Shown here: piece by piece, positions 3,001 to 16,940 of the stretch
Layout: each line of letters opens with the position of its first letter
Position numbering within the stretch: position 1 is the first letter of the stretch
DNA from: an uncultured virus (IMG/VR IMGVR_UViG_3300020195_000012)
Lineage: Duplodnaviria; Heunggongvirae; Uroviricota; Caudoviricetes
Reading direction: 5' to 3' (one strand)
Virus record (IMG/VR): IMGVR_UViG_3300020195_000012
DNA length: 20,000 bases
Notes under the pieces: model-generated
The model's database searches: none
The model's input: the letters and a program-made list of their open reading frames with translations, nothing else
What the model was told of the DNA's origin: nothing
Translations under genes and position numbers: made by a program

Positions 3001-6000
3001 AACACTGAAACGACATCTTACACATATAGGCGCTCTACGAATCGACCGTGGAGAAACCTGGGACAAAGGACAAGATGTTATTGATTTGTTCAAGAAAATG
3101 AAAAAAGAATTAGGTGGATTTGAAATTGAAACCCACGTAAAAGAAGCTTTGCCAATGTTAGAAACCGCATCTTCCCACCAAAAAGATTTACGCACATGGG
3201 AAAGCACTCTCAAGGCACACCAGGACAAAATACGAAATTATGAAGACGCAATTAAAAATGCGATAAACAATCCAGAATTACTAAAATCGATTAATGAGAA
3301 ATGGGCTAAGGATGAATACCAACCACTTGATGAATTGAAGAGATTGATTGAAGGAACAAAAGAGATGGCAGCTATCACACAAAGATCAATGGCTGCGATC
3401 ACGCCAGCCGCAGCAGCACCACCAGTGCCAGGAGCAGTTGTACCACCAGTGCCAGGAGCAGTTGTACCACCAGTGCCAGGAGCAGTTGTACCACCAGTGC
3501 CAGGAGCAGTTGTACCACCAGTGCCAGGAGCAGTTGTACCACCACCATCGCCACCAACACCATTTATTGGATTGTTTGATAATTTGCTTCCTATGATTAT
3601 ATCTCAAGCAGACAAAGCAAAAATAGAGGCAGATAAAAAAACAGCAGAAGCAGCAGCGGCCGCCAAAAAAGCCGAAGGAGAAGGACTCTCTATTTTCGGC
3701 ATGAAGCTATCTGATATGGTAATCAAGATAAAAGAAGCCAATATCGAATCTGCTAATATCAATAATGCAATAATAAAGGGATTAAGTGGAATACAAATGC
3801 CACTATCTCCAATGCCCGCATATGGAACAGCACCACCCGGAACACCCGGACAGTCCTACGTCATGCCACTTAGCAACAATGCAGTTCCAACGCCAAATCA
3901 ACCTACTGCACCAAATGCCCCATCAGAACCTCGTAATTTTGTACAAAAAGGGTTTGATTGGAGCAAAGATGTAGTCATTGATACTCTAGCTCCAGCTGGA
4001 TTTCAAAAAACTCTTGAGTCATTAAAATCAATTGAACAACAAGGAAGTAATCAAGGTAATATACCATCATTAACATCTAGACCTGGAGAGGGCGGCAAAA
4101 TCAGTCATGGGGCTATGATTGATGAAATGAACGCAGGCGAACGTATTGTACTTGCTAAAAAACTTAATGTTTCTGAAGAAAACTTGAAAAAAATGTCGAC
4201 ATTAGACATTTACAAAAGAATGTCTGTCGCTCCGGATTTATCTACAGAAGCAACTAAATTTCGTTCTAAAATTGAAGAAAAATTCATTCCAAAACATGAA
4301 AAAATCGAACACAAAGACTTGTGGAACAAAATTGATCCAAAAACTCAAGAATACATATTGCAAAATGCAGAAATGACCAAAGAAGAAGCATTATCAATGC
4401 CAACAGAAAAATTCAAGAGCAAAATTGAAAGTTTCAATCCGGAAGGGGTAATGGGGCAAGGAGAGGCAGGTAAAAAAAGAGAGAAAAAAGTAAAAGAATT
4501 ACAAGCAGACGTTCGCACAATTACTGCACCCAAACCTGTACCTGCAACAGACAAAAATTCAATTGCAGTAGCAGGAGGAACAGCACGTGAAACCGGAACG
4601 GCAAAAGCTGGACAAATCGGAAGTGTTGCTACACCAACTGACAGAGTATCTGGAAAAGATATACTTTACTTCCAAAACGTTAATGCAATTGAAGATATGC
4701 TTTGGTCATACAGACCAGACATAGACTTACTCAAGTCCCACGAAATTGCTATCAAAACTTATGAAGATTATCGCGTACTCGCAAAAAATGGGAAAGTAGA
4801 ATCAGACACATTGCGCAAATTGCTTGATACTAACCTCAATGCTGCCACAGGGCAATTTTTGGGTACAACTCCAACGCCACCACTGGCGGAAGGAAAAGGC
4901 ATTGCCGCCCCTACAACACCTGGGATTGTTGGACCACCAGCACCATTGAAAATCTCTGGTAATACTTACGGAATCGCACCAACTCCAGAAGTTGCACCAG
5001 CGCCAAGAGCCGCAGGAACACCACAACCCGTTATAGACGATCCAGCAGAGCAAGCATTTGAAAAAGCTGCATCAGGAGCAGCAATGCCACCAGTACCATT
5101 GCCACCTGAATTCAAAGATGAATTGAATCTTGGTAAGAAATCGTGGACAGGTGAAATGGGAGATAATACTCGTATTTTCCAAATGGACCAAGATGAAAAG
5201 AAACGAAAACGTCAAGGGTACATTGGTGATCTTGGAACTTGGATGAAAACCACTGGGGGAGCAGGCGGTGTAGATGATACTTGGTCTAAATGGGAAGATG
5301 GAAAATGGGGAAAATCATCACTGCACAGTCCAGATGAACAAAAGAAACTCAAAGAAGCAGGCAAACTCAAGAGCGAAAAACCACTTGAGTATTATGATAT
5401 CAATGCAGCATCAGCACTCGGAGCCAATCCAGCAGGAGGTGGATTTGAAAAGAAAATAACAGACATTACCAAACGTATAGAATCACCAGGAGATACTACA
5501 GAATCAGGAATTGACATTGAGAAAATAATAAAATCAATGTTGACCAAATCAGCATACAATTTATCTCCAGAAGAATTAGAAGAATTCATAAAGAAATTTG
5601 AAAACTTCGATAAAATGTTCACAATGCCTCTAGCCCCAACAGACATAATTCCGTGGCTAAATGAGCCAGAAGCAAAGTCTGTCACCGAAAAGGAACCCGA
5701 AACAGCATCATCTACCAAGCCAGGAAGTGTTGGAGACTATGCTTACACAAAGGAAATGACAGACGTAAACGCCGTTGAAATAACCGGACCTCTCAACGAT
5801 GCCGTCAATCACCTAACAGAAATTGAATCAAATACACGTGAAACTGCTCAGGAAACTAGAAACGTAAGAGAACTCATGCAGAAACTCGTTGCCGCAATGA
5901 CTACCCCACGAAGCGAAAGCCGCAGCAACGGAATTGCACCAGGCGATCCTTCTACCGACAATAGACCAGGAAGTCCTCCTAACTACTACACCTGGGCACT

Positions 6001-6055
6001 AGATATGACAATGTCACCAAATCTAGGCGCAAGACGACCTAATGGAGTCACGTAA
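2..6055 (+). CDS. Giant tape-measure-like / tail-associated protein (>2010 aa, 5'-truncated by the window edge)
   Basis: The frame has no stop from position 2 (tcc aag tcc gaa cga agg tta gtg...), so the real start lies upstream. It has a long Ala/Gly/Lys/Glu helical N-terminal part, a Gly/Ala-rich hydrophobic stretch (LANIAIGIAAGFAG...GGAVVVGVG, ~aa 635-712) typical of tape-measure proteins, and a low-complexity Pro-rich C-terminal half. The function is inferred. Confidence 0.65.
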   Translation, partial: SKSERRLVEKKLEELIKIQKDPTKGKKEFDAKVAELALLGERSSKIAEKKREKEVRDSRIKEIADKGRTFIEYAQMLAPSRAGIGTKFDPMAEAARVRDETHAWTQGIHEQMSQSFGMRGTMLDRGDHVGPGDQYRKATEGLKGFFEEANDLATGTISKGVLGGEAYSRGGGGYGSGTTLKGATGKEVGGMSSFDVTGQKTDKIQKVLLKNTQRGVTSLSRWVSLSRQGLQLGTMIGADAEHTAEELTDWHLQMGMTVDQTSQYSRDLQTVSKVTGVTGDKLLEAAKNGRSLADSMRSAGTLTSEAAKNLTQFSAAASRRGTDKIVQPLIDALSSTVNLFDSADPATFALAMRSAQIGGGPKLMTSLQAGTIPQDPKQMKAFAQGLRGVMMQMTGGRELNQIGPEELAQLNLAAKSAYGKQLKEMEMGADTFEEGSMSVAEKLEKIEATIKKGNLTGKELEDLNIQANALLATQHTEDTNNALRNLNSITAEMKGGKTFDQATKTVSDRINYVNPDTKLRENINPQQQLDKVIAGIEASANKLEGPRAEDQKQRLLARAAEFKERKTTIGSDPKQFGLLLKDMDDLIQANQVFEKQYQLDQSTFQLRNQERVQREFFEDEIRKDLLWMMAWSPPNASLANIAIGIAAGFAGMLEILIKILLAFVGFSILGKAIGALASVLGGLGSVIAPSALGSAAAFLGGPLLVAGVGGAVVVGVGQYLSSKSKKKEEEQWKDLGTEHSAVRDSFQPVIDAEKDPKRKALLEKKLQLELDVKAERKNLEVWKTRSDDPETMAQRTAERLANLFRRRERDYAVPNGQLEMDANVEKERNEAVMAIQARLDESIKELKAYKPDNRQAVKGLGSDTAQIFEVNANLNAEIAKRGQELNRAEQSAALEVVGVWSARSEQEKISARFYWRNWRKANNLAHRSHEDADVDYILFKQFITEQMAARRNDPSNPINVAQSSLNSAEQTHSDVVWGGGENIGNKLAEMMPAIDPKLQETLKRHLTHIGALRIDRGETWDKGQDVIDLFKKMKKELGGFEIETHVKEALPMLETASSHQKDLRTWESTLKAHQDKIRNYEDAIKNAINNPELLKSINEKWAKDEYQPLDELKRLIEGTKEMAAITQRSMAAITPAAAAPPVPGAVVPPVPGAVVPPVPGAVVPPVPGAVVPPVPGAVVPPPSPPTPFIGLFDNLLPMIISQADKAKIEADKKTAEAAAAAKKAEGEGLSIFGMKLSDMVIKIKEANIESANINNAIIKGLSGIQMPLSPMPAYGTAPPGTPGQSYVMPLSNNAVPTPNQPTAPNAPSEPRNFVQKGFDWSKDVVIDTLAPAGFQKTLESLKSIEQQGSNQGNIPSLTSRPGEGGKISHGAMIDEMNAGERIVLAKKLNVSEENLKKMSTLDIYKRMSVAPDLSTEATKFRSKIEEKFIPKHEKIEHKDLWNKIDPKTQEYILQNAEMTKEEALSMPTEKFKSKIESFNPEGVMGQGEAGKKREKKVKELQADVRTITAPKPVPATDKNSIAVAGGTARETGTAKAGQIGSVATPTDRVSGKDILYFQNVNAIEDMLWSYRPDIDLLKSHEIAIKTYEDYRVLAKNGKVESDTLRKLLDTNLNAATGQFLGTTPTPPLAEGKGIAAPTTPGIVGPPAPLKISGNTYGIAPTPEVAPAPRAAGTPQPVIDDPAEQAFEKAASGAAMPPVPLPPEFKDELNLGKKSWTGEMGDNTRIFQMDQDEKKRKRQGYIGDLGTWMKTTGGAGGVDDTWSKWEDGKWGKSSLHSPDEQKKLKEAGKLKSEKPLEYYDINAASALGANPAGGGFEKKITDITKRIESPGDTTESGIDIEKIIKSMLTKSAYNLSPEELEEFIKKFENFDKMFTMPLAPTDIIPWLNEPEAKSVTEKEPETASSTKPGSVGDYAYTKEMTDVNAVEITGPLNDAVNHLTEIESNTRETAQETRNVRELMQKLVAAMTTPRSESRSNGIAPGDPSTDNRPGSPPNYYTWALDMTMSPNLGARRPNGVT
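3419..3544 (+). repeat. Perfect in-frame tandem repeat, 24-nt unit CCACCAGTGCCAGGAGCAGTTGTA x5 plus partial (PPVPGAVV)
   Basis: Units start at 3419, 3443, 3467, 3491 and 3515, followed by CCACCA. All copies are identical and there are no spacers. Confidence 0.97.
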
Positions 6056-6082: not shown

Positions 6083-7372
6083 ATGAAATCACATGAAGGT
6101 ATGTTAATAGAAAAATACGGGTACAGATTCAAGGAATTCATTTGCTTCAAAGAAGGCAAAGAAAATCTTGAACAACCCCACATTATCAGTTCTGATTCAC
6201 CCATGAAGCTACCTGCTGGAATCACTCGCATCATCGAGGCGTTCAAAAAAAGCAAAGAAGTGCCAATTGGAAAGGAAGTCGATTCCAAGTCAGGAGGTGA
6301 AAAGGACGTCACCCTCAAGTCAAAGAAAATCTTCATCGTAGGCGAGGCTGTACGTGACTTCCTGCTCGGACACACACCAAGAACCTACGATATCGCTACA
6401 GATGCTCACCCAGATGAAGTCGAACGCATCATCAAACACGCCAAACCACCCATCCAAGTTGTCAAAAAAGATAGCAAAAATGGCGTCGTCAAAGTGTCTA
6501 TTGATGGCGAAACTTATAACATCGAAACCATGAAACTACCAGGCGACGACGAAGGAAATATAACTTTTACAACCAACCCAAAAGAAGATAGCGAACGTAA
6601 AGACGTAACAATAAACTCACTGTACTACGAACCATCCAGTAATAAGATTTACGACTATACAGGCGGGCTACGACACCTGAAAGATGGAACCATCAAAATG
6701 ATCGGCAAAGCCAAAGACCGAATCAAGAAAGATGGAATGAGTAAATTCCGCTACGCAAGAATGCTCAACAAAGTCCCTAATGCAAAAATGCACGACGACG
6801 ACAAAGAAGCAATGTCAGACGAAATAGATTCAGAATTGCCACCAGAAAAAATCCGAGACGAGTTCTGGCAGGGCATGGAAGACCTGCATACCAACGCAGC
6901 CAAATACCTGAAAACCTATAATGAAATGGGTCTGCTCAAACAAGTATTCCCAGGACTAGAATTGACCTTGGACTTCCCAGAATGCAAAACTTGTAAATCC
7001 AAGCCACTCGTTCTTGCAAGCCTGCTCAAGAATAACAAGCCAGTCAAATTGGTTGAGAAATTACGTGATCTCAAATACACAGACCGTGACATTAGAGATG
7101 CAGTGTTCTTAATCAATCTGTTACTGTTCAAGCCAGACTACATCTCAGACTTCAAAACTGAAATGACCAAGACAAGTCTAACCAAGCGACAAATAATGGA
7201 TTGGGCTAAGATCAATAACTTGGACACGAACATGATTGAAAAATTCTTGACACACCAAATTAGCACTGACCCCATGGATGTGCATGGAAGAGAAGGACTT
7301 GTCGGAAATGATCTAAAGGACCGAGTTCGTAGAATGGAAGCAATGGCATTTATGAAAGCTATGCGGACCTGA
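6083..7372 (+). CDS. Class II tRNA nucleotidyltransferase (CCA-adding/poly(A) polymerase family) homologue with degenerate active site
   Basis: IFIVGEAVRDFLLGHTPRTYDIATDAHPDEV matches motif A (VGGAVRD..LG..P.D.DIAT). EDSERKDVTINSLYY matches motif B (EDA.RRD.TINA). IYDYTGGLRHLKDGTIKMIG and PPEKIRDEF are also family-typical. Key residues are changed (see findings). Confidence 0.9.
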   Translation: MKSHEGMLIEKYGYRFKEFICFKEGKENLEQPHIISSDSPMKLPAGITRIIEAFKKSKEVPIGKEVDSKSGGEKDVTLKSKKIFIVGEAVRDFLLGHTPRTYDIATDAHPDEVERIIKHAKPPIQVVKKDSKNGVVKVSIDGETYNIETMKLPGDDEGNITFTTNPKEDSERKDVTINSLYYEPSSNKIYDYTGGLRHLKDGTIKMIGKAKDRIKKDGMSKFRYARMLNKVPNAKMHDDDKEAMSDEIDSELPPEKIRDEFWQGMEDLHTNAAKYLKTYNEMGLLKQVFPGLELTLDFPECKTCKSKPLVLASLLKNNKPVKLVEKLRDLKYTDRDIRDAVFLINLLLFKPDYISDFKTEMTKTSLTKRQIMDWAKINNLDTNMIEKFLTHQISTDPMDVHGREGLVGNDLKDRVRRMEAMAFMKAMRT

Positions 7373-7586
7373 TATAATTACCAGAACACCAAACGAGAAA
7401 CCTGTGAGTATTTTCTTTACTCGCAGGTTTTATTTTTTTGCAATCCGAAACTCCGTAAACACCAGTAATAATGTTTAAATTGTCTGCAATCATTACTCTA
7501 GTCGTGATTAAATTCTTTTGATTTGTTGTAATATCGATTATCCTTCCAAGACAATTAAGATATTCAACAATATCTCCAACCTTCAT
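7359..7586 (-). CDS. Small hypothetical protein (MKVGDIV start, possible SH3/KOW-like barrel)
   Basis: 75-aa ORF abutting the HNH gene; its 3' end overlaps the convergent nucleotidyltransferase gene by 14 nt. Confidence 0.6.
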   Translation of the reverse strand: MKVGDIVEYLNCLGRIIDITTNQKNLITTRVMIADNLNIITGVYGVSDCKKIKPASKENTHRFLVWCSGNYIRSA

Positions 7587-7587
7587 G

Positions 7588-7905
7588 TCAGACTCCAGGT
7601 CGATTCTTTATCTTTTCATGCCACAAAGCAACATCTGCCCTTACATCAGCATTCCAAGACTTCCACGACATCAAATGACCAAATGTGTAATGACAACGAT
7701 TGTGATTACAAAGCGTAATCAAATTATTAGGATCAAGTTCTTTTTCTGGATGAATGTGAAATGGCTCGATATGATGAACGTTTAAATCTTCAACTCCATC
7801 ACATATCACACAGTTAGGTTCTTTCTTGAGATGTTCTTGTTGAACTTTTCTCCAGCCTGGGGAACGTGGCGAACCGAAAAAATACTCTATAAATCTAGCT
7901 AGCAT
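7588..7905 (-). CDS. Small HNH endonuclease
   Basis: W...(EP)NCVIC...LNVHHIEPF...ELDPNNLITLC..RCH gives the CxxC...HH...N...C..CH pattern of small phage HNH nucleases. Confidence 0.9.
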   Translation of the reverse strand: MLARFIEYFFGSPRSPGWRKVQQEHLKKEPNCVICDGVEDLNVHHIEPFHIHPEKELDPNNLITLCNHNRCHYTFGHLMSWKSWNADVRADVALWHEKIKNRPGV

Positions 7906-7910
7906 AAAGA

Positions 7911-8126
7911 TTATATACGATTTGCAGCCAGCATATACTCGTGAATTTCTTCAGACGTTGGCTTGAAACAATACTCTTCTAACCACCAACTGCCATTGAC
8001 TTTACATCTCATTCCAGCGTCATACCAACAAATATCTTCAACCTTACCAACACGTCGTCTAGTCTTCCATCCAATTCTATTAGCGTCAGGGACAGAATAC
8101 AAAACAACAACAAGTTCGCCAATCAT
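7911..8126 (-). CDS. Hypothetical protein, paralogue of 8123-8341
   Basis: 71 aa, with RRVGKVEDICW...WWLEEYCFKPTSEEIHEY closely resembling its neighbour; 4-nt overlap. Confidence 0.8.
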   Translation of the reverse strand: MIGELVVVLYSVPDANRIGWKTRRRVGKVEDICWYDAGMRCKVNGSWWLEEYCFKPTSEEIHEYMLAANRI

Positions 8127-8341
8127 ATATTGTTTTTCCCCAACTTGTATGCGTGGATTTCTTCTCGTGTTGGATCAAAACAAAATTCCTCTGGAAGCCA
8201 AAAACTTGATTCTAAAAAATAGGATGCTTGGTCTCCAATTCCCCACGCGATGTCCGTCACTCTACAAACACGTCGTTTTATTTCAAATCCAGACTTAGTG
8301 GGAACAGATTCTTTGATAACAACAAGTTGAGTAATTTCCAT
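8123..8341 (-). CDS. Hypothetical protein, paralogue of 7911-8126
   Basis: 72 aa, with RRVCRVTDIAW...FWLPEEFCFDPTREEIHAY. Confidence 0.8.
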   Translation of the reverse strand: MEITQLVVIKESVPTKSGFEIKRRVCRVTDIAWGIGDQASYFLESSFWLPEEFCFDPTREEIHAYKLGKNNI

Positions 8342-8343
8342 GT

Positions 8344-8925
8344 TCAGCTCTCCAAGCCAATATAGACTGGAACTCCATCCTCAATTAATGTCATACTGGC
8401 ATTCGTGATTGTCATTGGCTCACGCCTGCCACCAAAGCACATTTGCCTAACCATATGCGTAATTGGAGTCATGTGACTCACAATGAAATAGTTCTTGTCC
8501 TTCTCTAATGAGGCAATAAAATCATTGATTCTGGTTCCGTAATCAGCATCAGACTCGTCATCGTAGTTGATGGTATTTTTGTTGCCAAACATGCTCCAAT
8601 CAAATAACGTATATTCACATGCCTTCTTGATAATCTCTGTTGATTGATGTTTGTGTACTGGTTCGGGGCTTTCGCCAATTCTTGTGTCAACACGAAACTT
8701 GACTCCGTTCATCGTCCAGAACTTGTAGGCAGTCTGCAAGCAACGATTGTACGGACTCACAATCCCAATGAAACTTTCAGGTTTTGCACCGATCTTCTCT
8801 CGACCCGCCAACGCCAAACGATGCGCTTGATCTTTACCACGCGGACTAAGATCGCTGTTAAATTGTTCGGTGCTGCCAGCATTGAACTGACTTTGCGCAT
8901 GCCGAACGAAGAAGATTTTTCCCAT
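8344..8925 (-). CDS. Histidine phosphatase (phosphoglycerate mutase-like, branch 1)
   Basis: N-terminal FFVRHAQS (RHG-type motif), DLSPRG..QA, SPYNRCLQTA, RIGE and IVSH. Confidence 0.9.
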   Translation of the reverse strand: MGKIFFVRHAQSQFNAGSTEQFNSDLSPRGKDQAHRLALAGREKIGAKPESFIGIVSPYNRCLQTAYKFWTMNGVKFRVDTRIGESPEPVHKHQSTEIIKKACEYTLFDWSMFGNKNTINYDDESDADYGTRINDFIASLEKDKNYFIVSHMTPITHMVRQMCFGGRREPMTITNASMTLIEDGVPVYIGLES

Positions 8926-8934
8926 TGCGTTCCC

Positions 8935-9432
8935 TTATGATAAAAGACTATACGTTCTTTTTAATTCTTGCCATTCTTGATATCCGAACTCTTGTACTGC
9001 CACGTGTTCATCATGTCCATCGAAGTCAGTTGGACTAATGGTACATTTGAATCTTGGGTACAATTTCTCTAATCTACGTAGTTCTTTCAACTTTTGACTG
9101 AATTGAAAATCTGAAATTGGTTTGAGACCTACAATTTGACAAATATATCTCAACCTAATAATGTCTTTTGCCAGGTTTCGGATTGAGTCGTGGATGACGG
9201 ATTCTCGCGTAGATGAGCCTCTACGCCACGCCATATAATCTTTAACAGGAGGTTCATGTTCGCCCCAAATCCAAACCAATTGTTCTTCGATGCAATACTG
9301 GATGGAGTATTGCATTCGAGCGAATCTGTCTGCTACCCATCTGTGAAATTCCCCAATCTTGTAGCTAAATAAAATCAACAAAATCAAAAAGAACGGGGAA
9401 CAACAACAAAACAATGCAAACACTGCCTCCAT
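8935..9432 (-). CDS. Membrane-anchored protein with a C-terminal NAD-dependent DNA ligase domain-Ia-like segment
   Basis: N-terminal hydrophobic helix (VFALFCCCSPFFLILLILF). KPISDFQFSQKLKELRRLEKLYP....ISPT resembles LigA P.ISD.EYD.L..EL..LE..HP.....SPT. A GGAG RBS lies upstream. Confidence 0.6.
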   Translation of the reverse strand: MEAVFALFCCCSPFFLILLILFSYKIGEFHRWVADRFARMQYSIQYCIEEQLVWIWGEHEPPVKDYMAWRRGSSTRESVIHDSIRNLAKDIIRLRYICQIVGLKPISDFQFSQKLKELRRLEKLYPRFKCTISPTDFDGHDEHVAVQEFGYQEWQELKRTYSLLS

Positions 9433-9458
9433 GACGTTTCTCCCGTCTGGATTCTACT

Positions 9459-10022
9459 TTAGTGCGAAAAAGCATCAATGCGAACTTTACTCTCTCTCGT
9501 ACTTTCCATTAGTTGTTTGACATTTTCCGCACAAAAACCAAACTCTTCACGTTCTATGAATTCGTATATCATGCCAGTCAGCCTATGAGGTTTACTGAAT
9601 ACCTGCTTCAAACCTGGACACGTCATTATATCCTTAGTGGTGAAATCTCCATAGCCCTTTTCCGTCCACTCTGCCATTTTTTTAGCAACAGAATCCACTT
9701 GGTACGCAATATGATGAGCGCCACCAATCCCATTGCGAGCCTCAACCCAATCAAAAACTATTGATCCAATCGTTCCTTCACTAACAAATATCTCAGGAGC
9801 AAGATGATATTCAAGTCGGTCATCTACATGATAAACCCACGGCATGTCCTTATCGAGTTTCTCTGGCGGCTCTAACGCCATGCATAAGGCTTTATCCGTC
9901 TTCTCGTCATTGAAGAAGATTTCAAACTCGGCTTGAATTTTGTATCCAAACGCATCCACAAAGAACTTGACTGCATCATCACGGTTTTTTACTCTGTAGG
10001 CGACGTGATCAATTCTTGACAT
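9459..10022 (-). CDS. VOC/glyoxalase-superfamily protein resembling the catalytic C-terminal half of 4-hydroxyphenylpyruvate dioxygenase
   Basis: RIDHVAYRV, GGAHHIAYQV, LKQVFSKP, YEFIER and GFCAENVKQLMES correspond to HPPD IDH / GIQHIAL / LLQIFTKP / FEIIQR / GFG.GNF.ALFE. Confidence 0.85.
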   Translation of the reverse strand: MSRIDHVAYRVKNRDDAVKFFVDAFGYKIQAEFEIFFNDEKTDKALCMALEPPEKLDKDMPWVYHVDDRLEYHLAPEIFVSEGTIGSIVFDWVEARNGIGGAHHIAYQVDSVAKKMAEWTEKGYGDFTTKDIMTCPGLKQVFSKPHRLTGMIYEFIEREEFGFCAENVKQLMESTRESKVRIDAFSH

Positions 10023-10422
10023 TATTTATCTCCATTCCACACTGACTTTTCAATTGGACAATTTCGTCTTCAACCCAATCTGTTAATACTCTGCTTTTAT
10101 AGCTGTAAACCAAACATAATTCATCCATAGTTTCTCGACCTGGATTGGCAACATAATCCCACTCAACTCCATAAAATTTATGTTTCGTATGAATATGCTG
10201 ATTAATTATTGAAATAACTCCATCTTGTATCGCTGAAAGGTTATTTCGAGTATTGAACATTTTTTCTGAATTAAAATGATCTACATTTTTAATCCACACA
10301 AACAAATAATTATGATCAATCAACATTTTAGAGATCGGTACTCGCCACGAAACATTCGTATTGTAAATTTTATTAATTTCTGCGTCACGCGAATTAAAGA
10401 CGCGCATATACGTTTCTAGCAT
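10009..10422 (-). CDS. Hypothetical protein, likely paralogue of 10422-10772
   Basis: 137 aa, AT-rich, with TRN...DG...HKFYGVE...YKSRV; TAATG junction with the upstream gene. Confidence 0.7.
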   Translation of the reverse strand: MLETYMRVFNSRDAEINKIYNTNVSWRVPISKMLIDHNYLFVWIKNVDHFNSEKMFNTRNNLSAIQDGVISIINQHIHTKHKFYGVEWDYVANPGRETMDELCLVYSYKSRVLTDWVEDEIVQLKSQCGMEINNVKN

Positions 10423-10772
10423 TATAACTCAAAATATTGTGTTTTAACTCTTGCACGGTAACGGAATCCAATTTGTTTAATATACATTAATGCTCCAGAC
10501 TTATCACCACTCAGGTCCGAACACTCAACGCCATAATAAATATGTGTACTTAAATGCTTGTGATCCAAATACAACTTCAATTCCAATATACCATTAAACA
10601 TATTAACAATTGCATTTCTAATGTCAATATTATTATTAAAAGATTTATGATCTTTTAATAATAATTGCAGTCTTCCATTAAATGGAGATATATCAAAGAT
10701 AACGTCAACGGGAGGGCAAATAATCAACCCGTTGACGTCTTTGCAAGTAAACCACACGTCAAGTTTTTTCAT
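10422..10772 (-). CDS. Hypothetical protein, likely paralogue of 10009-10422
   Basis: 116 aa, AT-rich, with IRN...NG...HIYYGVE...YRARV; ATGA overlap with the upstream gene. Confidence 0.7.
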   Translation of the reverse strand: MKKLDVWFTCKDVNGLIICPPVDVIFDISPFNGRLQLLLKDHKSFNNNIDIRNAIVNMFNGILELKLYLDHKHLSTHIYYGVECSDLSGDKSGALMYIKQIGFRYRARVKTQYFEL

Positions 10773-11200
10773 CGCTTTTTCCGTTCCGCTCGTTGCTGCT
10801 TCTTCCTTGCCTCTGCTCGTTCTTTTGGATTCAGGCGAACAATACCCTTTGCCTTACACATCTTTTGAAAATCATTCTGCATCTCTATAACTTCACCTTC
10901 AGTTCCAATATACATCTTGGGCGATACTCCCTTGATCCACATAAAGAACGTACCAATCTTGCCCTTGTCCGTGTCATAGAAATGCGACGCGGCAACATTC
11001 TTAACTCCATCAACTCTTGGCTTGCCTTTAGCCATCATCTCGGCAGAATTCTTGGCGAACTCTTCCAACTGTTCTTTGGAAAACAACGCTGATACTGTGT
11101 CTGTAGCAGCGACATCCGAATAAACAGCATCTTTTTTTTGTTCCGACAAATGTGGACCTTTTGTGTCCACAACAGCATTGTCAATTACTTCAGTAACCAT
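10769..11200 (-). CDS. Hypothetical protein with basic C-terminal tail
   Basis: 143-aa ORF overlapping both neighbours; ends ...ARKKQQRAERKKR. Confidence 0.75.
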   Translation of the reverse strand: MVTEVIDNAVVDTKGPHLSEQKKDAVYSDVAATDTVSALFSKEQLEEFAKNSAEMMAKGKPRVDGVKNVAASHFYDTDKGKIGTFFMWIKGVSPKMYIGTEGEVIEMQNDFQKMCKAKGIVRLNPKERAEARKKQQRAERKKR

Positions 11201-12582
11201 TTTTTGTCAAACTCCCGTGGGATTCCAAAATAAAACCTTTGATACTTTTGTTTCATGTCCTTGTACCAATCGGACTCTAAAATATAACTCAAATAAGCAA
11301 ACACATCACTGTACGGACGACCTGTCTCTTTCCAATAAAGTTTAAACTCGTCCGTCAAGTTGTTTTCAACTCCATCTACGGGAACAGTTCTATTCGCAGA
11401 TGGACTACAATTACGATTCACGTCATAGTCGGTGAACCCATGATAGTCCAAACAACCTTTACTTGGGTTGCCTGGAAAGTAGAAAGACCGGCATGGATTC
11501 GGATTCAACTGGTACACGAAACTTGCTTTTTTCAATGCTTCGTGTCGAAAATAGAACCGAATCTCATGACGGTGCTGGATTGGTTTGTAAAAGTTATCAC
11601 ATTGAAAATCTTTGGTGTCAACCCGTCGCCTAATCTCTTCAACATAACGACTAACCACTTCCAGTTTATTAATATCACCCTTCTTCAACGCCCTCAAATG
11701 CGGTTCACCCTGATAGGACAAACCTTCCATTACCCCAACTTGACCAGAGAACAACCTTATCAATCTTTCCTTGAAATGCTCTCTTGGCTCACATTTCACC
11801 GACAACAAAACACTCTCGCACGGAACACTTCCCAAGTAAGTTTTCTTGAATATGGATTGAAAAGGAATCAAGTCCTCGTCAACTCCATAAAACGAATCTA
11901 AGTTAGATTCAATCCCATCCCACAAAAACTTATCCGAACGTGTTCCATCTACAACAAAATGAACGTAACACAGGTCGGTTGTCACACCAAAAAAATCCTG
12001 TCCAATGTCATTCACTGATACAAGTCTAACATTGTTTTTCAGAAATCCCGTAAACGTCTTGTACGAACGAGAATTGTTCTGGAATATTGTCTTCGGCAAA
12101 ATGTAGTAAATGTGACCACTAACATTATTCTTCAAAATCAAATCAATGCTTTTGATAATGAAAAATACTGCTTCTTCTCGTATTCCTGTTACGCCATACT
12201 TCTCACACATCTTGCGAAGGTATGGCTTACGATTGAAAACCACATCATCGCCCAGTGAACAAGCTGGGGTGCGATAAGGTGGGTTTCCTATAAACGTTAT
12301 ATCGTTACCAACCAGTAAATCAAAATCATAGAAATTCAGATTAGCAACCTGTTCTCCTACGTACTCAAGCTCTTCATCTAACTCAATTCCCAAGATAATG
12401 GTATTTGGCGATTTTGCTCTGATCTTGTCTAAGAAAACACCTTTGCCGCAACTCGGTTCAATCACCAACGGAGTTACTATTTCCGTGTGACTCAAACAAA
12501 AGTCAGCAGTTTTATCCGGAGTGAAGAACTGCCCGAGTTGTTGCTGCTTCTCAGGTAAGTCTTTTGAATTGACTTTACCCAT
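11185..12582 (-). CDS. Amino (N6-adenine/N4-cytosine) DNA methyltransferase, gamma-class motif order, with a long unassigned C-terminal region
   Basis: LGQFFTP (motif X), VIEPSCGKGVF (motif I), GIELD, FIGNPPY (motif IV) and YILP. No cognate restriction gene is adjacent. Confidence 0.88.
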   Translation of the reverse strand: MGKVNSKDLPEKQQQLGQFFTPDKTADFCLSHTEIVTPLVIEPSCGKGVFLDKIRAKSPNTIILGIELDEELEYVGEQVANLNFYDFDLLVGNDITFIGNPPYRTPACSLGDDVVFNRKPYLRKMCEKYGVTGIREEAVFFIIKSIDLILKNNVSGHIYYILPKTIFQNNSRSYKTFTGFLKNNVRLVSVNDIGQDFFGVTTDLCYVHFVVDGTRSDKFLWDGIESNLDSFYGVDEDLIPFQSIFKKTYLGSVPCESVLLSVKCEPREHFKERLIRLFSGQVGVMEGLSYQGEPHLRALKKGDINKLEVVSRYVEEIRRRVDTKDFQCDNFYKPIQHRHEIRFYFRHEALKKASFVYQLNPNPCRSFYFPGNPSKGCLDYHGFTDYDVNRNCSPSANRTVPVDGVENNLTDEFKLYWKETGRPYSDVFAYLSYILESDWYKDMKQKYQRFYFGIPREFDKKWLLK

Positions 12583-13131
12583 CTATATTTTCAATCTCCA
12601 TTCGTTCAATTCTTTCTTTGCCAGTTCAACACATTCATCCGCTTGATCAAATCGAATGTTGTTGTGAGCAGGCCATATAATCGCACTGCCGCCTGCGTCC
12701 ACGAACTTCGTGCAATTGACTGTGTGGTCATCAATCAAGATCGTGTTCGGACCTGCGCACAATTCCTTCTTATGCGTAATTGCATAATCAGTAAAATTGG
12801 ACCCAAAATGCTTCTGCATCCATTGCAACTTGCCAGACAGGGACGAACTGTGTGTGGTTGGTCTGGTGAGTATGTACGTTGGGGCTAAATCCTTGCAGTA
12901 ATGATAAAAGTCCATCGCATATGGGTAAAGTGTCAGGTTCGCCCAGAAACCCTCTCCTGCGGCATTTATGACCTGAAAAAAGGCATCCTCGGAAATGCCG
13001 AGAACCTTCGCCATGTCGTACTCGCCAGAAGGCCAGACAGACAGCAATTCGTCATAATCCAAATCAAATATGTCTGCTGCGCTTTTGACGAAATTAATCA
13101 AAACTCCATCTAAATCTAAAAATATTCGCAT
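12583..13131 (-). CDS. HAD-superfamily 5'(3')-deoxyribonucleotidase (NT5C-like)
   Basis: IFLDLDGVL (DxD), FW.NL..YP, ILTRP, GKLQW, and K...ILIDD. The ATG at 13131 is preferred over the TTG at 13134. Confidence 0.9.
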   Translation of the reverse strand: MRIFLDLDGVLINFVKSAADIFDLDYDELLSVWPSGEYDMAKVLGISEDAFFQVINAAGEGFWANLTLYPYAMDFYHYCKDLAPTYILTRPTTHSSSLSGKLQWMQKHFGSNFTDYAITHKKELCAGPNTILIDDHTVNCTKFVDAGGSAIIWPAHNNIRFDQADECVELAKKELNEWRLKI

Positions 13132-13150
13132 CAATTTACCATAATGTTTA

Positions 13151-13183
13151 TAATAACTCCCAGAACTAATCTGGGAGTTATTA
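13151..13183. terminator. 14-bp perfect inverted repeat TAATAACTCCCAGA-actaa-TCTGGGAGTTATTA (terminator-like or processing hairpin)
   Basis: Seen directly in the gap between two minus-strand genes; there is no clear U-tract. Confidence 0.6.
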
Positions 13184-13191
13184 ATAGATTT

Positions 13192-13425
13192 CTATTCAGA
13201 AACGTCATCAATTTCCACGTGAGGAATTCCATCACCGGATTGGCTAATCACCAGTTTTGCACCTGTGCCCGTGATCAAGTCAACCAATTCAAGGGTTGAA
13301 TCAATTTCAATGAGCCAGTCTTGGCAGTGAAGGTGCCATCTCGCTTCAGGGTGTGGCGACCATTCTGGAGTAGGATGATCAATCGTCATAAACTTGTCGG
13401 AAGCACGTGAAATAGTGAAAATCAT
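13192..13425 (-). CDS. Small hypothetical protein
   Basis: 77 aa with a strong GAGGAG RBS upstream; fills the gap between the HAD gene and clpP. Confidence 0.8.
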   Translation of the reverse strand: MIFTISRASDKFMTIDHPTPEWSPHPEARWHLHCQDWLIEIDSTLELVDLITGTGAKLVISQSGDGIPHVEIDDVSE

Positions 13426-13452
13426 GGAAACTCCTCTAAGTAGAAAGAAAAT

Positions 13453-14004
13453 TCAGACCAATCTGATCTGATCACACAGATTCAGTTCAAGGGCTTCTTT
13501 CGCAGTCAAATAGACATCCGATGGCGGAAGCAAGTGTTTTCTAATCATCTTCTCTGTCAAACCTGTGTGTTTTTTAAAATGACGCATAATCATTTCGCCA
13601 ATAATTTTGTCTCTTTTAATTCCCGCAATCAACTCGTGTTCTTTTCCATCTATACCGCCAGCAAACTGATGTGACATTATCAACGTGTTCGGTGTCAGTA
13701 TTCTATCACCCTTCTTGCCTGCTATAAAGATCAATAATCCCATCGACGCAATAATTCCCATGCCAACTGTGCGTATTGGAATTGTGCTTCCAGCCATCGC
13801 ATCAACCACAGACAACCCGGAACTCACATATCCACCAGGACTATTAATGATCAAAGTCAACATTTCATGACGAGATTCAAAATTCTCTTCAATGATCCAT
13901 CTTATAACATCTGCGCTTTGTTCATCATCCACGTCACCAGAAAATTGCCATACGCCCCAATCCTCTAGACTCTTACTTTCCTCTTCAAAATCATCGTGTT
14001 TCAT
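13453..14004 (-). CDS. clpP: ClpP-family serine protease
   Basis: INSPGGYV..GL.VVDAM, IASMG (catalytic Ser), IMSHQ (His) and DVYLTAKEALELNLCD (Asp); the triad is intact. Confidence 0.93.
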   Translation of the reverse strand: MKHDDFEEESKSLEDWGVWQFSGDVDDEQSADVIRWIIEENFESRHEMLTLIINSPGGYVSSGLSVVDAMAGSTIPIRTVGMGIIASMGLLIFIAGKKGDRILTPNTLIMSHQFAGGIDGKEHELIAGIKRDKIIGEMIMRHFKKHTGLTEKMIRKHLLPPSDVYLTAKEALELNLCDQIRLV

Positions 14005-14008
14005 GAAT

Positions 14009-14347
14009 TTACTCTATTGTTTTAGCATAATTGAATAATACTACATATGTCATTATTATGAAAGAAATTACGGAAGAAATCTCTACTCCAACATGCCAAT
14101 CTCTTCTTTTTGAACGAAATTTAATATAACAAGTTATAAACATTATAAGAAAAACGCCAATCGCTTTACTCAAAAAAAGAACATTCCAACCGTATTCTTT
14201 CAAGACGTAAGCCATAATTGGATTGTCTTCTTCGCATCCATGATAACTAATTGCAACATACGTCGTTAGGCAATCAAAGAAATGTAACACACACGTTAAC
14301 ATAATGATAGCCCAAAACCATCGATTTCCAATATAACCATGTTTCAT
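14009..14347 (-). CDS. DUF5658-like membrane protein
   Basis: FFDCLTTY...EEDNPIM...LSK pattern with about three hydrophobic helices. Start placed at 14347 (ATGA overlap with the pyrB stop) rather than 14380. Confidence 0.75.
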   Translation of the reverse strand: MKHGYIGNRWFWAIIMLTCVLHFFDCLTTYVAISYHGCEEDNPIMAYVLKEYGWNVLFLSKAIGVFLIMFITCYIKFRSKRRDWHVGVEISSVISFIIMTYVVLFNYAKTIE

Positions 14348-15225
14348 AGAATGTCTTGTAATAGAGCAGCGCGAATCCATAAACCATTTTCCGCTTGTCT
14401 AAAATACGCTGCTCGCAAATTATTATCAACTTCTGGAGATAATTCTTCTCGTCTTGGCAGTGGATGCATAACAATACTTGAAGGTTTCATGCTCTCAACC
14501 AACTCATATGTGATCCAAAAATCTGCCCCAAGTTTATCCCCACCACCACGTTCTGTCTGAAGTCTTGTCATGTAAACCACATCTGCCCCTTTGATTCCTT
14601 CCTCAACAGAATTTCTAAAAGCAATTGTCATTCCTTGCTTGAAAGCAAAATTCATCACTTCATCAGGCAAAGACAATTTTTCGGGACTCACCAAAGTCAA
14701 TTTTATTTTTTCATACAATCCAAGCAGGTAAATCAAACTGTGGATTGTTCGTCCATGTTTCAGATCACCAACCAGACAATAATGTTTATTATCCGGCTCT
14801 CCTGTCTCTCGATAAACTGTGTACAAATCCAACAATGCCTGCGTAGGATGCTCACCCGTTCCATCGCCCGCATTGATAATTGGAACGGTCGCTACGCTTG
14901 CAGCTCTTTGTGCTGCGCCATTGTCAGGGTGCCTTAACACAATTGCGTCACAATAAGTAGAAACAATTCTGATCGTGTCTTCCAGTGTTTCGCCTTTGAT
15001 GGCTGATGAGAATTGCGCAGCGTTCTCTGTTGAGATTACGTTTCCACCAAGTTTGAACATTGCTGCTTCGAAACTGAGACGAGTTCGTGTACTTGGCTCG
15101 TAGAACAAAGTGGCAATGATGCTTCCAGTCAAAGTTTTGAGTGGAGACATTCGGATTTGATCCGCCTCCTTGACAAGCCTTTTCACATCTTTGCGACCAA
15201 ACTGACGTGCGCTAATAACGTGCAT
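14344..15225 (-). CDS. pyrB: Aspartate carbamoyltransferase catalytic subunit
   Basis: FYEPSTRTRLSFE, KGETLEDT, VLRH, INAGDG..EHPTQALLD, GDLKHGRT, YMTRLQTER and MHPLPR; RBS AGGAG at 15232-15236. Confidence 0.98.
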   Translation of the reverse strand: MHVISARQFGRKDVKRLVKEADQIRMSPLKTLTGSIIATLFYEPSTRTRLSFEAAMFKLGGNVISTENAAQFSSAIKGETLEDTIRIVSTYCDAIVLRHPDNGAAQRAASVATVPIINAGDGTGEHPTQALLDLYTVYRETGEPDNKHYCLVGDLKHGRTIHSLIYLLGLYEKIKLTLVSPEKLSLPDEVMNFAFKQGMTIAFRNSVEEGIKGADVVYMTRLQTERGGGDKLGADFWITYELVESMKPSSIVMHPLPRREELSPEVDNNLRAAYFRQAENGLWIRAALLQDIL

Positions 15226-15560
15226 TTCCTTCTCCTGGTTTAGTGACTAAAACAAAGTCGAAAGAACCCCTGTGGGACAATAAGGGTTAAGCTGAATTAA
15301 AGCTTAATACGTTTAAAGTCAATTTAAGTACATGCAAAAAGTTAAGCATGCTTAATACACTTGTTACACTTACTAACATCAGCTCTCTTCACAATTGTGA
15401 ATGTCCCTTTGGGTAAAGGGCTGACATAACTTGAGTGTTCGACAAACAGAGTGGGGTTCTAAGAACTCTGGGACCGCCAAAGGTGAAGGCGTTGTCATGG
15501 TTTTTATCAGTGACTTCTGCGAGTGTTGGCTTGTTTCACTAATGTAGCCTCTTGCTACTG
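15226..15560 (-). ncRNA. Candidate structured 5' leader RNA of pyrB (~335 nt) or independent ncRNA; no known family recognised
   Basis: Lies between a consensus promoter and the pyrB RBS. By eye it has two three-way junctions (15441-15496, 15376-15427), several hairpins, and G-U pairs that favour the minus strand. Confidence 0.45.
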
Positions 15561-15566
15561 CGAACA

Positions 15567-15595
15567 ATGTTATGACAAAAATCATTTTCTGTCAA
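15567..15595 (-). promoter_or_regulatory. Sigma70-type promoter TTGACA-17-TAACAT pointing toward pyrB, overlapped by an imperfect inverted repeat
   Basis: -35 at 15590-15595, -10 at 15567-15572, 17-nt spacer; TGACA...TGTCA dyad at 15573-15594. Confidence 0.75.
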
Positions 15596-15632: not shown

Positions 15633-16040
15633 TTGAACACTTGGAGAACCTTTGTGATTTTGCTAACTCTATTTGTACTTGTTTGTTGGTGTGTCGCTAC
15701 AATTGCCGTCAACAAACCCGAGATTGCTAAAAACCTACCTGGACAACTTGATCTAGATTTGACTTCTATTTGGATGAAAAGTTATGCAGTAATTGTCTCA
15801 CCAGCAATTGTAGTTTGCCTCGTACTTGGAATTTTGGCTGCATTAATGTTTTTAGTGTTTTATTATCCTTTTGATTTGTGCGCAAGAAGAAGAGTCGCTT
15901 TAGAAGCAAAAAACATAACTTGGCAAAAAGAGCAGAATTTGAACGATTATCGACGTGAAGTTGAAGAGCATAATTTGCAAACCGCAATCAGTCGTTTTCA
16001 ACATCATAACAAACTGAACTCTAGCGGAAATGATATATGA
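15633..16040 (+). CDS. Two-TM membrane protein with a C-terminal soluble helix
   Basis: Hydrophobic segments FVILLTLFVLVCWCVATIAV and YAVIVSPAIVVCLVLGILAALMFLVFY; TTG start is uncertain; ATGA overlap with the next gene. Confidence 0.7.
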   Translation: MNTWRTFVILLTLFVLVCWCVATIAVNKPEIAKNLPGQLDLDLTSIWMKSYAVIVSPAIVVCLVLGILAALMFLVFYYPFDLCARRRVALEAKNITWQKEQNLNDYRREVEEHNLQTAISRFQHHNKLNSSGNDI

Positions 16041-16346: not shown

Positions 16347-16940
16347 ATGTTACACGTTATTACTGATGGCGGATACGATGATTGGCGAAAACAATTACTT
16401 GATTTATACTTACACACTCCAGGTTGCGTTAAGACTGGTGATGTGACATTAGCCAGTGGAGCCAAATCAGATTTGTACATTGACTCCAAAATGGTTTCAT
16501 TGTCTCATAAAGGATTACAACTCATTGGGGCTTGTTTTCTTGAACGGTTTCTAGAAGAAAGATTGGAGTTCAATGCAATTGGCGGGATGACAGTAGGGGC
16601 AGACCCAATAATTTCAGCATGTACGTTATTATCATCATGTTGGGGACATGGCGCAAAAGGCTTTATTGTACGTAAAGAACCAAAATCACACGGAACTGGC
16701 AAGCTGATTGAAGGACCGTTGAACAAGGGAGACAATGTAATTTTGGTAGAAGATGTGACTACAACGGGTGGTACACTGGTGCAGGCGACCAGAATCGTTA
16801 GAGATTACGGATGCAAAGTGGTTGCTGCGTATACGGTGGTTGATCGTGAAGAGGGTGGCACAGAATCACTTGCAAAAGAAGGCGTCAATCTATTTTCCAT
16901 TTTAGTACGTAAAGACTTGTTAAATGTTAACTCAATCTGA
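16347..16940 (+). CDS. pyrE: Orotate phosphoribosyltransferase
   Basis: TLASGAKSDLYID, GGMTVGADP, VRKEPKSHG, PRPP motif VILVEDVTTTGGT, and VVDREEGG. Confidence 0.97.
   Translation: MLHVITDGGYDDWRKQLLDLYLHTPGCVKTGDVTLASGAKSDLYIDSKMVSLSHKGLQLIGACFLERFLEERLEFNAIGGMTVGADPIISACTLLSSCWGHGAKGFIVRKEPKSHGTGKLIEGPLNKGDNVILVEDVTTTGGTLVQATRIVRDYGCKVVAAYTVVDREEGGTESLAKEGVNLFSILVRKDLLNVNSI

Follow-up and report, generated by a model that had tools for sequence, protein, structure and literature searches.

The locus studied here lies in a 20,000-nt stretch of DNA from an uncultured virus, which was analyzed at its full length and is referred to as the window. The genes of this phage-like window are tightly packed, and two blocks of them diverge around a gap of ~430 nt, which is the largest non-coding stretch among the ORFs of the window. 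An earlier reading, made from the letters of the sequence alone (the sequence-only reading), had described this amount of non-coding space as exceptional, which the size of the gap bears out. The minus-strand block extends from ~7359 to 15225 and has its transcriptional start at pyrB (14344..15225, minus strand), the product of which was identified as the catalytic chain of aspartate carbamoyltransferase by the Pfam domains OTCace_N and OTCace and by TIGR00670 (319 bits, cut-off 237). The plus-strand block begins near 15633-15653 with a gene for a small membrane-like protein, and includes pyrE, encoding orotate phosphoribosyltransferase (16347-16940, plus strand; TIGR00336, 131.7 bits, cut-off 106.8). 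Thus placed, pyrB and pyrE flank the divergent region, and the presence of two pyrimidine-synthesis steps in one phage neighborhood is unusual. Scanning for promoters revealed a sigma70-like site ahead of pyrB, TTGACA-17-TAACAT (15567..15595, minus strand; 10 of 12 matches), with a predicted transcription start at ~15560, in agreement with the earlier suggestion that a leader starts at a promoter in this gap.

Further features of the neighborhood were recorded. Immediately 3′ of pyrB and in the same block, a DUF5658 protein and a ClpP-family protease are encoded (13453-14380, minus strand), and beyond the ClpP-family gene the block carries a 5′(3′)-deoxyribonucleotidase-like gene and a gene for a protein with an Eco57I-type methylase domain. 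On the plus strand, a giant ORF of >2017 aa (2-6055) continues beyond the 5′ edge of the window. A tRNA nucleotidyltransferase-like gene is found at 6083-7372 on the same strand (phrog_2244, E 8e-23), yet no tRNA or tmRNA gene was detected in the window by ARAGORN. Where the plus- and minus-strand blocks converge, a strong terminator-like hairpin (14-bp stem, then a T-run) is located at 7397-7431.

Folded RNA upstream of pyrB

The gap before pyrB was found to encode a real, evolutionarily maintained folded RNA of ~300 bases (15558-15258, minus strand), as judged from sequence comparison with a second copy on another viral contig, G001. All helices listed in the sequence-only reading were recovered where it had placed them, with the 52-nt three-way junction 2 matched exactly at 15376-15427 on the minus strand. 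From 5′ to 3′ on this strand, the leader opens with a 5′-terminal hairpin, GUAGC/GCUAC, of 5 bp with a 5-nt purine-rich loop (15544..15558), as identified by sequence and folding. Hairpin H1 (15506..15543) follows, with an 8-bp stem and an almost invariant 22-nt loop; it includes the helix formed by UUAGUGA with UCACUGA (15542-15536 with 15513-15507), and 8 of its 8 pairs are kept in G001, one of them through a U-G to C-G change. Three-way junction 1 (15441..15496) is composed of P1 (5 bp), P2 (4 bp, with the loop UUCACCUUU), J2/3 (GUCC), and P3 (6 bp, with a 12-nt loop); three compensatory pairs were identified in its stems, while its loops and junction are conserved between the copies. A linker, GAACACUCAAGUU (15428..15440), with the potential to pair through its first 8 nt with GGGGUUC in the terminal hairpin, leads into three-way junction 2 (15376..15427), made up of an 8-bp closing helix (8/8 pairs kept) and two small hairpins. 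The remainder is a 3′ domain (15258..15375) that proved almost invariant when aligned with G001, and which contains the helices CAUGC/GCAUG (15350-15331), UUAAGCU/AGCUUAA (15307-15287), and AACCCUU/AGGGGUU (15288-15265, the terminal hairpin) and ends in the tail CUUUCGA. The spacer between this domain and the gene (15226..15257, minus strand) includes the pyrB Shine-Dalgarno sequence AGGAG and UCACUAA (15246-15240); it is not conserved, with no similarity to the G001 copy.

Folding of the minus strand of 15226..15560 yielded an energy of −85.1 kcal/mol (z −2.48), a value reached by 1 of 100 shuffled sequences, compared with 4 of 100 in a plus-strand control (z −1.50). The expectation that the leader folds better than shuffled sequence was therefore upheld in direction, with an effect that on its own is moderate and suggestive rather than decisive; covariation is the stronger support for the structure. 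The strand of the RNA was assigned by its G-U pairs, which occur in H1, the closing helix of junction 2, and the terminal hairpin. As these pairs would become A-C mismatches on the other strand, it is the minus-strand RNA that folds; in each of the two copies the G-U pairs are compatible with that strand alone, as had been claimed from the window by itself.

A second copy and compensatory substitutions

The stretch of the window was detected in 10 microbial-mat metagenome runs, none of which is on record as RNA, and contigs from four of these 10 runs were compared with the window for variants. One contig of 187 nt covers only 15402-15544, differs from the window at 16 positions, and has flanks unlike those of the window. 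Six of the substitutions listed for this contig were found to form three pairs (15496/15441, 15495/15442, and 15466/15451), each an exchange between G-C and A-U, in helices P1 and P3. When contig depth was summed for run X6, it reached 24 over junction 1 versus ~5 beside it, with loose ends at 15541, 15544, and 15402. A third variant contig, also from X6, seems to have one additional base on the 3′ side of the H1 stem, together with a different 5′ flank; read by eye from this fragmentary sequence, 8 pairs would remain. These contig sequences indicate that further variants of the element, with other flanks, exist in the mats.

A full-length homologue was retrieved from IMG/VR with a pattern that fixed the junction 1 loops and left the stems open. 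The single contig matched (L161, that is, G001) is 54.8 kb in length, with a CheckV completeness estimate of 11%, and its positions 31046-31334 are 89% identical to 15544-15258 of the window. The leader was the only similarity detected between the 20-kb window and the 55-kb G001 (blastn, E ≤ 1e-3; tblastx, E ≤ 1e-5). In tetranucleotide composition, by comparison, the two correlate at r = 0.949, with parts of G001 correlating among themselves at 0.93 and 22 unrelated loci of similar GC at ≤0.55. From these values we infer that the window contig and G001 derive either from a single large phage genome or from sister genomes, and the element would therefore be a repeated module of that lineage. 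Genes on G001 include those for a UvsX-like recombinase, an SSB, a DNA polymerase, a DnaB-like helicase, purN, and a TnpB-like protein.

The setting of the G001 copy resembles that of the window copy. It likewise lies at a divergent strand switch, with a promoter-like TTGACT-17-ATTAAT at the equivalent place (read by eye, with a second hexamer that fails the scan rule), and it precedes a co-oriented block that starts with a 494-aa protein and continues with the DNA polymerase and DnaB-like helicase. The 494-aa protein matched no family, and a search of IMG/VR returned only itself. In both copies the folded structure begins 1-2 nt past the predicted start, and the similarity between them ends at 15258, 7 nt past the terminal hairpin. 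From the end of the element to the first ATG there are 32 nt in the window and 46 nt in G001, an interval that has no recognizable promoter and is too short to house another.

Several additional observations were made on G001. A 533-aa protein encoded at 47319-48920 (L166 7319-8920), 16 kb from the element, weakly resembles Rsr, an RNA-binding protein of the Ro60 type (91 bits versus a cut-off of 900). Transposase-like genes of the IS200/IS605 accessory kind (phrog_506, E 2e-100), and a serine-recombinase-like gene with an endonuclease-like gene after it, were also noted (L164 16146-17375 and L166 13049-14771). The label cyanophage-like rests on one cupin gene and on PHROG names, and a search for the host with the G001 purN returned Planctomycetota, Gemmatimonadota, and others (≤57% over partial matches, ≤50% full-length), with no cyanobacteria among the matches.

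Covariation was examined for 52 pairs in nine helices, using the structure that had been drawn from the window only; seven of the nine helices were complete, and hairpin a of junction 2 and the UUAAGCU arms were trimmed. In the two-sequence alignment with G001, 104 of 104 cells were paired: five pairs had changed on both sides, three had changed on one side via G-U, and none of the 52 was broken. When partners were slid by 1-3 columns, compensatory pairs fell to zero and pairing to 29-44%. The shuffle control of the tool, which is weak with two rows, reached the observed value in 14 of 500 shuffles. A random-placement control was also performed, in which the 21 observed substitutions (16 of them transitions) were distributed over 264 alignable columns, omitting the replaced hairpin b (22 columns); among 200,000 trials, none produced at least five compensatory pairs, and 0.36% left no pair broken. 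RNAalifold independently predicted the same 5′ helices, with seven pairs changed on both sides.

The substitutions are spread over the 5′ domains. In junction 1, the compensatory pairs are the three listed above, detected first in the variant contigs and then in G001. The closing helix of junction 2 has two compensatory and two one-sided changes; inside this junction, hairpin a is without its top pair in G001, and hairpin b is replaced by another small hairpin, AUUC-UAAAU-GAAU. The 5′-terminal hairpin of G001, GUGUC-AGAAA-GAUAC, displays by eye one compensatory change (G-C to U-A) and one one-sided change (A-U to G-U); it stands outside the 52-pair count, as MAFFT shifts its 3′ arm by one column. 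With this hairpin included, six compensatory changes are present in four helices. Over the 3′ 118 nt the two copies differ only by a small indel (G versus CUC) at ~15351, and because of this near-identity the 3′ hairpins give no covariation test. A run of 93 nt of perfect identity between the copies suggests, at the level of sequence, recent exchange between them. Overall, the pattern of substitution across two full sequences and contig fragments indicates that the RNA fold is under selection.

Distribution and relation to known RNA families

The leader was compared with known RNA families and searched for in sequence collections. Rfam 15 gave no match at gathering thresholds for the whole window; at E ≤ 10 the matches were noise (16.7 bits versus a cut-off of 55), with noise families that differ between the two copies. 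Infernal thus assigned the leader to no Rfam family, the PyrR site included, in keeping with the earlier remark that no PyrR box is visible. A blastn search of 2.1 kb against 50,697 phage records returned no match. As single-protein queries in IMG/VR, pyrB and pyrE returned no relatives, and a pyrB-alignment search of IMG/VR retrieved 80 loci at ≤54% identity, with the leader in none. The corresponding search of metagenome contigs provided the best 80 among the matches listed, at ≤57% identity. No copy of the element came to light in either set of other pyrB loci fetched in this way (80 viral and 80 metagenomic, 160 in all), of which the 80 viral ones were certainly searched (blastn/nhmmer).

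Searches with parts of the element were similarly restrictive. The junction 1 loop pattern had one match in IMG/VR, the G001 homologue, and none in genome contigs. Within IMG/VR, the 3′ 39-mer and the H1-loop 18-mer matched only the G001 contig, and a window-specific 27-mer of junction 2 had no match; in genome contigs, the H1-loop 22-mer and the 3′ 23-mer had none. A covariance model and nhmmer revealed no further copy within the window and G001 (75 kb), leaving one copy per contig. The P2 21-mer had three matches in high-GC bacterial coding regions (L169-L171), which extend over ~24-37 nt only and were rejected as chance rather than homology; all three encode the same short peptide. No description of the element was found in the open-access full texts searched. 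By its sequence, the leader is a new RNA family, absent from Rfam and known from only two to three sequences.

Terminal hairpin and proposed modes of action

To our knowledge, few RNA elements control the transcription of whole phage or mobile-element operons. The explanation that we favor, with somewhat less than even confidence and on sequence grounds, is that the element is a portable operon leader, an RNA acting in cis to control elongation or read-through. The RNA would be transcribed from its own sigma70-like promoter and continue into the first gene of a long phage block; at least two copies, 89% identical, exist in one large microbial-mat phage lineage, at the heads of operons unrelated in content. 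The comparison establishes the structure, its conservation, its strand, its position, and its portability; the transcription start, the action in cis, and the read-through mechanism are inferred. Acting in cis on its own transcript, the RNA would use its 5′ domains (terminal hairpin, H1, and the two three-way junctions) to bind either RNA polymerase directly or a factor supplied by the phage or its host, and this binding would decide the passage of transcription beyond the terminal hairpin, by attenuation or by processive antitermination. Stabilization of the mRNA by the 5′-terminal hairpin may be an added role. The two most economical mechanisms appear to be control of read-through at the terminal hairpin and modification of the elongating polymerase, the latter in the manner of HK022 put or the conAn2 RNAs.

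The terminal hairpin is predicted to be weak as an intrinsic terminator. Its energy is −6.2 kcal/mol, its U-tract is broken in the window and missing in G001, and it was not flagged by the terminator scan. An alternative partner for its 3′ arm was identified in junction 1, where the P3 loop GAACCCC (15459-15453) is perfectly complementary to GGGGUUC of that arm (15270-15264), allowing seven Watson-Crick pairs. The modeled duplex is more stable than the pairing of the hairpin's own arms (−11.3 versus −7.4 kcal/mol) and is used in the unconstrained minimum free energy structures of both copies; the complementarity is invariant between the copies, and in a sequence of 300 nt chance alone will not infrequently produce a perfect 7-mer match. 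This interaction could be a pseudoknot or a competing pairing, and would fit a gate. The linker is paired by RNAalifold with columns 281-287, with one U-G to C-G change and duplex energies of −4.5 and −7.5 kcal/mol; this modeled linker/terminal-hairpin pairing is weak and speculative.

A further switch had been proposed in the sequence-only reading, in which UUAGUGA pairs either locally with UCACUGA or at long range with UCACUAA next to the ribosome-binding site. The local helix gained support from the U-G to C-G change. The long-range pairing is not conserved: similarity ends at 15258, and where the window has the spacer with UCACUAA and the Shine-Dalgarno sequence, G001 has an unrelated downstream sequence, so that this switch is without comparative support.

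The placement of the two copies is consistent with a cis-acting leader. Each is preceded by a promoter-like site and followed directly by the gene that opens a long co-oriented block, a promoter-proximal position like that of put, EAR, and conAn2; co-orientation in two of two loci is weak statistics. Terminator-like sites were not enriched downstream, with 12 versus 9.6 ± 3.3 expected in one block and 10 versus 14.2 ± 4.3 in the other. This result lends no support to processive antitermination and does not exclude it.

Known systems offer partial parallels. The put RNA of phage HK022, an RNA-only processive antiterminator of a lambdoid phage, is small, with two stem-loops, and a genome carries it more than once, in front of different operons. 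As described in the literature, it is a cis-acting folded nascent RNA positioned just past the early promoters, which acts on the phage's own early transcription (PMC9378689). The leader is likewise promoter-proximal and is present at least twice in one lineage; it differs from put in its size of ~300 nt, its two three-way junctions, the lack of a detected sequence or Rfam relation, and the absence of terminator enrichment downstream. A closer match in size is the conAn2 RNA of pLS20 and other Gram-positive conjugative plasmids, which is described as poorly conserved in sequence, predicted at ~260-600 bp, cis-acting, and situated at the start of a very long operon; where the same paper lists RNA-based antiterminators, it gives only put, EAR, and conAn2 (PMC8191782). 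By these descriptions, the leader and conAn2 are alike as large RNA elements heading very long mobile-element or phage operons. In contrast, conAn is presented as a bipartite system, no partner was identified for the leader, and host range and element type differ.

The element is branched and of considerable size, its stems have clearly evolved by compensation, and it is common to otherwise dissimilar neighborhoods of a large uncultured phage lineage. If the favored reading of a cis-acting leader is true, the element would be a compact, portable regulatory part, and if operon expression is gated by it, the leader would provide a new handle on the timing of early genes in giant phages. A bolder form of this reading is that giant phages use large operon-head controllers of a new class, either RNA-only or RNA plus factor, in which a ~300-nt multi-junction leader is copied to several early operons (nucleotide synthesis, DNA replication), reprograms RNA polymerase or gates read-through and so sets the timing of gene blocks, and has its 3′ domain kept uniform by gene conversion; we put this forward with low confidence and consider it rather unlikely.

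Among the alternatives, a serious rival, although one that we hold to only tentatively, is an independent small RNA gene of the phage, ~300 nt long and equipped with both a promoter and a terminal hairpin. Its product would work in trans, whether as a regulator, a decoy, or a sponge for protein, and its proximity to operon starts would be incidental; a phage ncRNA was the second option of the sequence-only reading. Conservation that runs from the predicted start to 7 nt past the hairpin matches the extent of a transcription unit, and its sharp end fits a separate small RNA equally well as a leader. The almost invariant 3′ 118 nt are as expected for a seed or protein-binding region, and the element moves independently of neighboring genes. 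Counter to this explanation, the weak terminal hairpin has no U-tract after it in G001, both copies are co-oriented with the downstream block, and the lack of a promoter in the 32 or 46 nt before the first ATG suggests that the downstream block depends on read-through.

A metabolite riboswitch, with the tandem three-way junctions as aptamers and the terminal hairpin as platform, and with a pyrimidine, PRPP, or nucleotide-pool signal, is doubtful. In its favor, stems covary around conserved loops and junctions, the P3 loop has an alternative partner in the terminal hairpin's 3′ arm, the region in the window is situated between pyrB and pyrE, and operons for nucleotide synthesis and DNA replication could share a nucleotide signal. 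The sequence-only reading had offered a switch of this kind specific to pyrB and responsive to nucleotides or PRPP, a proposal that the second copy does not support, as that copy heads the block of the 494-aa protein, DNA polymerase, and DnaB-like helicase, the first of no known family. Since the element is not tied to pyrB, as is also apparent from the lack of linkage among other pyrB loci (80 viral searched, 160 fetched), the riboswitch explanation loses its main argument. Neither copy has an Rfam match at gathering thresholds or at E ≤ 10, and the expression platform is weak, with an RBS pairing that is not conserved. The element looks like a general operon-head control RNA rather than a pyrimidine sensor, and it illustrates that an RNA leader in front of a metabolic gene does not necessarily sense the corresponding pathway. 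In E. coli, pyrBI is controlled by a leader-peptide attenuator in which the stop of the leader ORF lies within the hairpin geometry. Like this attenuator and the PyrR leader, the element precedes pyrB and has a hairpin shortly ahead of the coding sequence; it differs in having no PyrR site, in not being specific to pyrB, in a mini-ORF without a ribosome-binding site, and in a second copy with a hairpin that lacks a U-tract.

A DNA-level cassette with a functionless RNA is very unlikely. Under this explanation the element would be either a strand-switch origin or a promoter/terminator recombination module of the kind described as PeSLs (promoter-early stem-loop cassettes) in T4-type phages, which are reported as small composite terminator/promoter sequences, repeated and intergenic, that have unrelated genes on their flanks and mediate module swapping (PMC4122927). 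Unrelated flanking genes and a strand switch are present in both contigs, and the 93-nt identity run suggests recent exchange similar to that attributed to PeSLs. However, six compensatory changes in four helices and strand-specific G-U pairs are unexpected of a recombination site, and a promoter plus stem-loop would be far smaller and less branched than this element of ~300 nt; its compensatory substitutions argue for selection on an RNA fold.

A coding function, finally, is unlikely on the sequence evidence and is hardly to be expected for either candidate, a 68-aa ORF at 15585-15379 (minus strand) or a 20-aa mini-ORF at 15349-15287 (minus strand) that would serve as a leader peptide. The frame of the 68-aa ORF has 8 synonymous and 8 non-synonymous differences, with 1-4 synonymous in each of the other five frames, but the majority of these synonymous differences represent one side or the other of a compensatory pair; G001 has a stop inside junction 1, no start is conserved, the start in the window falls between the −35 and −10 hexamers, and no words are shared with 5.8 billion predicted proteins, in which the pyrB of the same contigs is on record (five contigs). 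The mini-ORF terminates inside the terminal hairpin, with its stop codon in the 5′ arm, much as in the E. coli pyrBI attenuator, but it has no Shine-Dalgarno sequence, and the paired indels of a variant contig would introduce a stop; it is identical in both copies and hence provides no comparative test of coding. The 20 codons of this mini-ORF lie inside the invariant 3′ domain and are Leu-rich, with U-rich codons.
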